64,000 bases of DNA, from sequence record OR844650, one strand, 5' to 3'. The notes below the pieces were generated by a model. It was not told the DNA's origin and searched no databases. It saw only the letters and a list, made by a program, of their open reading frames with translations. Made by a program: the position numbers and the translations under genes. This DNA comes from Escherichia phage ECO103 4-12-1. This document shows positions 6,478-6,513 of this stretch, piece after piece; positions within the stretch are counted from its first letter, which is position 1, and the number at the start of each line of letters is the position of its first letter.

Positions 6478-6513
6478 CATTATATCATGTATGGGACATT
6501 ATGTCCCATACAA
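6478..6513 (-). promoter_or_regulatory. extended -10 promoter (TGATATAAT on minus strand) abutting a perfect 12-bp inverted repeat
   Basis: Minus strand reads TGTATGGGACAT-a-ATGTCCCATACA then TGATATAAT, about 31 nt upstream of the ATG of 6259..6447; a -35-like GGGACA lies inside the palindrome. Confidence 0.4.

Follow-up and report, generated by a model that had tools for sequence, protein, structure and literature searches.

A palindrome overlapping a promoter behind the PhoH-like gene of an Asteriusvirus jumbo coliphage: a probable composite of 3'-end hairpin and promoter

Description

Between a PhoH-like ATPase gene (PhoH) and a small lysine-rich gene, Escherichia phage ECO103 4-12-1 (sequence record OR844650) carries a 37-bp element in which a perfect palindrome overlaps a promoter. 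We describe this element as a probable composite (probability roughly 0.55, from sequence comparison) of an attenuator or 3'-end hairpin for PhoH and a promoter for the next gene, with no protein operator needed. The 64,000-nucleotide stretch that was analysed, here called the window, is Asteriusvirus jumbo coliphage DNA, 99.8% identical to Escherichia phage vB_EcoM_phAPEC6 (phAPEC6 below), with G17, PBECO4 and 121Q (Asteriusvirus jumbo myoviruses, ~350 kb) as further relatives. Coordinates were converted as window x = phAPEC6 position x + 248759. The composite reading draws on the layout of the element, its membership in a promoter family, a half-site that is unique, and the conserved position of a hairpin after PhoH across relatives; from these we infer an active promoter and a hairpin whose role is to terminate or stabilise RNA. 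An earlier sequence-only reading of the window had proposed a promoter under a likely operator and, as a secondary suggestion, a terminator-like hairpin for PhoH. The promoter stands at the level of sequence, the preference for an operator does not, and the secondary suggestion fits the comparative data best among the readings.

In the mechanism that we propose, a polymerase coming from upstream would copy the palindrome into the end of the PhoH mRNA, and a nascent 11-bp hairpin would form just beyond the PhoH stop codon, where it would attenuate read-through, protect the PhoH 3' end, or both. Either a fraction of polymerases would be released over the A/U-rich TGATATAAT stretch, or read-through and trimming would leave the hairpin as a cap that shields the PhoH message from 3' exonucleases. 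Separately, an RNA polymerase holoenzyme would bind GGGACA in the left arm together with TGATATAAT, the right arm filling the promoter spacer, and would start near 6472 to give a short monocistronic small-gene mRNA that ends at the terminator at 6134-6155.

Table 1. Features of the PhoH/small-gene locus in the window, and individually inspected promoter and stem-loop composites elsewhere in phAPEC6
Feature	Sequence	Position	Strand	Basis and remarks
PhoH-like ATPase gene, 479 aa	window	6516..7955	-	ORF list; PHROG 2765 PhoH-like, E = 4.8e-163
PhoH stop codon TAA	window	6518-6516	-	then tat, 3 nt, before the palindrome
Palindrome TGTATGGGACAT-a-ATGTCCCATACA	window	6488..6512	-	left arm 6512-6501, central A 6500, right arm 6499-6488
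-35 box GGGACA	window	6502..6507	-	inside the left arm of the palindrome; consensus scan
Extended -10 TGATATAAT	window	6479..6487	-	abuts the right arm of the palindrome directly
Predicted transcription start	window	6471..6473	-	~6-8 nt past the -10 hexamer; from standard sigma70 promoter geometry
Shine-Dalgarno AAGGAG of small gene	window	6455..6460	-	sequence
Small lysine-rich gene, 62 aa	window	6259..6447	-	ATG at 6447; PHROG 24119, function unknown
Canonical intrinsic terminator GTCCCTG..CAGGGAT + T6	window	6134..6155	-	ends the small-gene transcription unit; consensus scan
Composite ACAGCGGG-ataaa-CCCGCTGT-tttg-TGATATAAT	phAPEC6	118957		
Composite TTTTATAAGT-GGGACA-ACTTATAAAA ahead of TGATATAAT	phAPEC6	199998		
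Hairpin/promoter composite	phAPEC6	230111		
Full terminator, T-run extending into -35 region	phAPEC6	215410		
Composite AAAAAGGG-TTGACT..-CCCTTTTT-gc-TATAAT	phAPEC6	21817		
Three copies GGGATTGAC-tccg-GTCAGTCCC-ttt-gc-TATTAT	phAPEC6	325790, 328056, 334694		
Several CAGTACTAT-TTGACA..-ATAGTACTG-TATAAT cassettes	phAPEC6	336669, 333822, 326415, 333571		dense early region

Locus and promoter

The minus strand carries nearly all genes around the locus (Table 1). The PhoH-like annotation of the upstream gene is present in phAPEC6, G17 and others, an RBS is annotated in UE-S1 at the place homologous to AAGGAG of the small gene, and the terminator behind the small gene is also annotated in G17 (ARNold) and UE-S1. 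Promoter, 62-aa ORF and terminator therefore make up a self-contained unit. The C-terminus of the 62-aa protein gives a weak, sub-threshold SHOCT-like match. Upstream of the terminator, the 3'UTR of the small gene (6174-6240, minus strand) holds an 11-bp long-range inverted repeat, GTGGAGTTCTT .. AAGAACTCCAT, enclosing ~45 nt that are very AT-rich.

The claim of a promoter is well supported at the sequence level, and the promoter belongs to a strand-biased, intergenic-enriched family, GGGACA-N16/17-TGATATAAT. The window has 11 minus-strand copies of TGATATAAT and a single plus-strand copy, where 1.8 would be expected on each strand; over 348 kb of phAPEC6, 41 copies are found on the coding strand and 8 on the opposite one. 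Of the 41 coding-strand copies, 21 are intergenic, although non-coding DNA makes up only 8.4% of phAPEC6. When matches to the -35 hexamer were scored 16-18 nt upstream of TATAAT at these 21 sites, GGGACA was exact in 8 and matched at 5/6 or better in 11 (random positions, 0.8%), and the aligned sites show an A-rich stretch followed by T-GGGACA. GGGACA is therefore a class consensus and not an accidental weak -35. As a member of this class, the promoter at 6479-6507 is probably active. The literature searched contained no mapping of transcription starts, terminators, promoters or 3' ends for any Asteriusvirus; for phage CBB, of a related genus, RpoD-like promoters and a divergent TGAAACG -35 class have been described, found by MEME only.

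Two other kinds of promoter were considered at the palindrome and dropped. A divergent plus-strand promoter would have only TTACAT at the right spacing, a poor match by eye, and an N4-type hairpin promoter was set aside, the annotation of the 348 kb of phAPEC6 that were read listing no virion RNA polymerase of N4 type.

Palindrome and its folding

The perfect 12-bp inverted repeat that the sequence-only reading placed over the promoter is borne out on the minus strand, with 12-nt arms and 1 nt between them, as is its GGGACA within the left arm, which lies 17 nt upstream of TATAAT with TG preceding the -10 hexamer. A count of perfect inverted repeats (arms of 12 nt or more, spacer of 8 nt or less) was made over the whole window and in dinucleotide-shuffled versions of it. 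The window has 2, namely the palindrome at 6488-6512 and a canonical terminator at 12311-12338, whereas shuffled windows have 0.135 on average, and at least one in 11% of shuffles. As RNA, a 56-nt segment with the palindrome folds at -19.2 kcal/mol (z = -3.76; 0 of 200 shuffles fold as well). The sense RNA has an 11-bp stem with a 3-nt loop and 4 G-C pairs that begins 3 nt past the PhoH stop; at the DNA level this stem covers the -35 and the spacer, and its last base immediately precedes TGATATAAT.

No U-tract follows the stem, the bases there being UGAUAUAAU. The consensus scan made no terminator call at the palindrome, and in G17 (ARNold) and UE-S1 the only terminator annotated here is the one behind the small gene. 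Efficient intrinsic termination is therefore doubtful. Of the 9 nt past the stem 8 are A/U, from which weak or partial termination at the hairpin is conceivable. An Rfam scan of 5900-6800 gave no match near the gathering threshold.

Comparison with relatives

The spacer between PhoH and the small gene was read in ~25 related genomes. The palindrome element is kept in every phAPEC6-type and WPEC5-type Asteriusvirus genome read, and is therefore not a chance feature of one genome. Among close relatives (~97-100% identical over 200-450-nt segments), the 68-nt spacer varies only in the apical 5 nt of the palindrome, with 3 variable positions, all of them apical (G17, SHEFM2K, JP4): these 5 nt read ATAAT in the window, ATTAT in G17, SHEFM2K and one metagenome contig, and ATATC in JP4. 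In relatives at ~83-90% identity, ph0011 has 11-bp arms and the loop ATA, UE-S1 reads GTATGGGAC-gtact-GTCCCATAC, and the group of WPEC5, vB_Ec-M-J, TH47 and Turkey3 reads TGTGTGGGAC-attc-GTCCCATACA, with a loop 1 base shorter; loop length among the relatives is 3, 4 or 5 nt. Even at this distance, no change is seen in the 19 nt that comprise the right arm and the -10, and TGATATAAT is invariant in 8 of 8 distinct cassette variants.

The sole internal arm change of the WPEC5 group, A to G, still pairs as G·U on the sense strand but would be A·C on the opposite one, and the fold of this variant reaches -18.1 kcal/mol in sense versus -12.8 in antisense. Over the 8 distinct variants, 2 of the 11 stem pairs vary one-sidedly (A-U to G-U), 8 are invariant and 0 changed on both sides. 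With no compensatory covariation in the phAPEC6/WPEC5 hairpin lineage, the case for structure is made by the other hairpins that replace this one at the same position. Pairing to the constrained -35 explains the inner 7 stem pairs; that the outer ATACA does not vary is statistically unremarkable given the few independent lineages, and a protein site would show the same.

Such replacements are found on several branches. In Turkey5 and A4, the PhoH end and the small gene are kept, and a different cassette, TTGACA..TGCTATAAT, stands between identical flanks; its stems (GCGTCCAT/ATGGACGC in Turkey5, GTGTTCAT/ATGAACAC in A4) both span the -10 and differ from each other by two compensatory double substitutions. 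In JNE01, an inserted gene of 426 aa separates PhoH from the small gene. A different hairpin, GGAGTGC-tttttata-GCACTCC, stands behind PhoH there and leads into TTCT with no clear T-run, and the small gene keeps the TGATATAAT promoter with no hairpin, behind which the 5'UTR is a mosaic of WPEC5-type and Turkey5-type sequences. In other genera, Serratia phage BF and Erwinia phages have canonical terminators after PhoH (GGGGATAC..GTATCCCC plus T-runs), and GAP32 and Yen9-04 have a similar hairpin with a T-run. EJP2, classified in Asteriusvirus, has GGGGGAGT..ACTCCCC after PhoH and then ATTCATTT, which is not a clean T-run. RaK2 has TTTCGGTACTGA..TCAGTACCGAAA and then TTT after PhoH, with a separate TTGACA-17-TATAAT promoter ~30 nt after the hairpin, ahead of the homologous small gene.

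In every relative examined, a stable hairpin lies within ~40 nt of the PhoH stop, with unrelated sequences and folds of -12 to -19 kcal/mol (50-100-nt segments). JNE01, RaK2 and the other cassette types show that the hairpin stays with the 3' end of PhoH and the promoter with the small gene; by the layout of their spacer, phAPEC6-type phages have the two superimposed. Scans of IMG/VR and metagenomes anchored on the PhoH 3' end gave no new cassette variants, the true homologues being 121Q and one G17-type contig and the 31 other metagenome matches being chance.

Alternative explanations

An operator in the strict sense, at which a dimeric DNA-binding protein of phage or host binds the palindrome and represses or activates the small-gene promoter, seems to us quite unlikely. 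The layout is that of a classical operator, a perfect 12-bp palindrome with its centre between -35 and -10; the core TGGGAC..GTCCCATACA and the -10 are unchanged in 8 distinct cassette variants, and a sequence-specific binder would also predict the invariant 19-nt block of right arm and -10 in relatives at ~83-90% identity. Against this, the search for further half-sites that the sequence-only reading had proposed found no exact TGTATGGGACAT other than that of the palindrome, either in the window or in 348 of the 352.6 kb of phAPEC6, and a regulon-type operator is rejected on this ground, although site counting cannot speak against a single-copy operator. The same 348 kb hold three lone half-sites with 1 mismatch, where chance would give ~1.5 (a rough hand estimate that assumes equal base frequencies), and no other GGGAC-N-GTCCC site with the same flanks; of the remaining GGGAC..GTCCC dyads of phAPEC6, those compared with the annotation sit behind genes in intergenic gaps, as ordinary terminator hairpins do. 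GGGAC and GTCCC are separated by 5 nt in phAPEC6, JP4 and UE-S1 but by 4 nt in the WPEC5/MJ/TH47/Turkey3 group, substitutions in the arms break the symmetry (T to A in UE-S1, A to G in WPEC5), and promoters of the same class stand elsewhere without a palindrome. Among four marks of an operator that were considered, the dyad over the core promoter is present, and two, recurrence of the half-site and conserved spacing, are absent. The fourth mark is a cognate DNA-binding protein; the obvious candidate for autoregulation, the 62-aa product of the small gene, stays nearly the same in phages whose palindrome has been exchanged (Turkey5, A4) or is missing (JNE01), and this near-constancy across all cassette types argues against autoregulation through the palindrome, which is also rejected. 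Sites for CRP, LexA or TyrR and a Pho box were dropped as poor matches by eye. A different protein reader, very unlikely in our judgement, would be the RpoD-like sigma factor gp066c that phAPEC6 encodes: GGGACA-N16/17-TGATATAAT would be read by gp066c and not by host sigma70, and the inverted second -35 copy that this one promoter carries would gate it, either by hairpin or cruciform formation or by competing binding of sigma region 4 to the inverted -35. Region 4.2 of gp066c has, in a by-eye alignment, an insertion followed by the recognition helix KSRSSIHRKYSE; the corresponding helix of E. coli sigma70 is TRERIRQIE, and the two appear to differ at positions usually assigned to -35 contacts. 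Judged from this helix, gp066c might read one promoter class, either GGGACA-TGATATAAT or AGTACTTGCAA-TATAAT. If the gp066c reading were true, 'Group 2' jumbo phages would have a phage-specific promoter class, with the element as one of its regulated members.

Closer to the composite reading, but unlikely, is a hairpin that acts as an RNA 3'-end stability element only, blocking 3'-5' exonucleases on processed read-through RNA and so setting the half-life of the PhoH mRNA without stopping polymerase, its overlap with the promoter being a matter of genome compaction. The stable stem 3 nt past the PhoH stop and the missing U-tract would suit this, as would the post-PhoH hairpins of JNE01 and EJP2, which likewise lack a clear T-run; the full canonical terminators with T-runs that distant relatives have at the same position point instead to termination as the ancestral role, and weak termination may still occur over the A/U-rich bases after the stem. 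By sequence alone, stability and attenuation are indistinguishable. Least likely, and in our view improbable, is an element that works at the DNA level as a single-stranded hairpin or cruciform with no RNA role, whether a hotspot of recombination and module exchange or a supercoil-sensitive gate on the promoter. The cassette is a replacement or insertion junction, having been replaced between identical flanks in Turkey5 and A4; in JNE01 a gene was inserted exactly between hairpin and promoter, with a mosaic 5'UTR; and the central base is A or T between near-identical genomes, as inversion of the loop would give. Loops of promoter-early stem-loops (PeSLs) have also been reported as crossover points (PMC2839356). 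The G·U-compatible change of the WPEC5 group nevertheless favours pairing of the sense-strand RNA, its counterpart on the other DNA strand being an A·C mismatch, and homology between promoter copies could explain recombination with no hairpin involved. Arms of 12 bp are, moreover, short for cruciform extrusion.

Relation to known systems

A compact hairpin-on-promoter layout is already known from T4-type phages. The PeSLs of RB49/phi1, PST and nt-1 (Arbiol et al. 2010, PMC2839356; Comeau et al. 2014, PMC4122927) consist of an intergenic sigma70-like promoter and a stem-loop between or overlapping the -35 and -10 boxes, with a stop codon on one side and the SD of a small ORFan on the other (PMC2839356). 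One tested PeSL stem-loop terminates as strongly as rrnB T1, and PeSL cassettes mediate module exchange (PMC2839356; PMC4122927). The element described here resembles them in its order of stop codon, stem-loop over -35 and spacer, sigma70-type -10, SD and small ORF of unknown function, in being a site of insertion or replacement between close relatives (Turkey5, A4, JNE01), and in the many other promoter/stem-loop composites that phAPEC6 holds. It differs in its host genome, an Asteriusvirus jumbo phage instead of the T4-like phages of the described PeSLs, and in that its stem occurs once in 348 kb, whereas PeSLs have a repeated polyG/polyC motif; in phAPEC6 the promoter motif TGATATAAT is what is repeated (21 intergenic copies), and the stem sequence is single. 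Its -35 is GGGACA and not TTGACA, its -10 is of the extended type, and no AT-rich tract lies upstream of the -35, where the left arm and the PhoH stop occupy the space; an A-rich upstream region is present in the GGGACA promoter class overall and absent at the palindrome copy. On this comparison, it is plausible that the palindrome cassette is a member of a PeSL-equivalent class in Asteriusvirus.

Like an intrinsic terminator, the element has a stable stem-loop directly after a stop codon, a 3-nt loop within the 3-8-nt range, and counterparts in relatives with hairpin and T-run at the same post-PhoH position; unlike one, it continues from the stem into UGAUAUAAU with no U-tract. With lac O1, LexA boxes and phage Cro/CI operators it shares a perfect inverted repeat over the promoter -35 and spacer, but its palindrome is single-copy, its arm spacing varies, and promoters of the same class lack a palindrome.

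Neither the GGGACA-N16/17-TGATATAAT class nor PeSL-like composites in Asteriusvirus were found in the literature searched. If the composite reading is correct, Asteriusvirus jumbo phages share with T4-type phages a space-saving design that places hairpin and promoter within ~40 bp, and such cassettes mark points of gene exchange. Annotators gain the promoter model GGGACA-N16/17-TGATATAAT, with its 21 intergenic copies in phAPEC6, and a warning that a palindrome overlapping a promoter is not always an operator. The class and the composites are useful for annotation, would not surprise a specialist in phage transcription, and open no long-standing question.

Other composites and motifs in the genome

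The same layout, a hairpin that carries or brackets the -35 with the -10 abutting, recurs elsewhere in phAPEC6 at individually inspected sites (Table 1). At 118957, the upstream helicase gene appears, by coordinates, to have its stop codon within the hairpin loop. The layout was judged from these inspected sites and not from a genome census of hairpins followed by a -10-like hexamer, which gave 36 on the coding strand versus 39 on the other, its criterion being too loose in AT-rich DNA. The three hairpin-embedded promoters at 325790, 328056 and 334694 lie in long intergenic regions (180-250 nt), where each is followed by a conserved, strongly structured ..GAGAGATAGCTCACTAGCCCAC..GGGTGCATAAGTGTATC.. 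segment; from this arrangement the regions may be repeated non-coding RNA genes.

The early region of phAPEC6 (324-342 kb) has dozens of ORFs of 60-130 aa, each behind a near-identical cassette of ~90 nt with the order AAAAAGTACTTGCAA (or AGTATTGACA), ~17 nt, TATAAT, TTTTACATCA, hairpin, SD, ATG, in which the 5'UTR hairpin is GGGGAG-loop-CTCCCC. From its sequence, this region looks like a hyperplastic one built from repeated promoter/stem-loop modules.

Three further TGATATAAT promoters on the minus strand of the window lie close to dyads. At 38020-38065, a GAGACA-16-TGATATAAT promoter is directly followed by the hairpin AAGGTGAC..GTCACCTT and seven T, in a ~600-nt gap without an annotated CDS (phAPEC6 285171-285773); such an arrangement could give a very short transcript (sRNA) or act as a promoter-proximal attenuator. 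A CCCTTTA..TAAAGGG dyad (52814-52792) comes right after the -10 of the promoter at 52792-52823, and GTGAACA..TGTTCAC (39791-39757) brackets the spacer and -10 of another.

The palindromic hexamer AGTACT, often present as CAGTACTG, is ~8-9-fold over-represented, with 197 copies in the window (21 expected from base composition) and 906 in 348 kb of phAPEC6 (118 expected); for ten other palindromic hexamers with this base composition the counts are 9-49. The literature searched gave no account of this over-representation. Examples in the window are at 32107-32126, 60752-60769, 24265-24286 and 36368-36397. The hexamer occurs genome-wide and in all three codon phases, with 16% of sites intergenic versus 8.4% of the sequence, and copies of it flank the -35 as well as the -10 in promoters of the early region.
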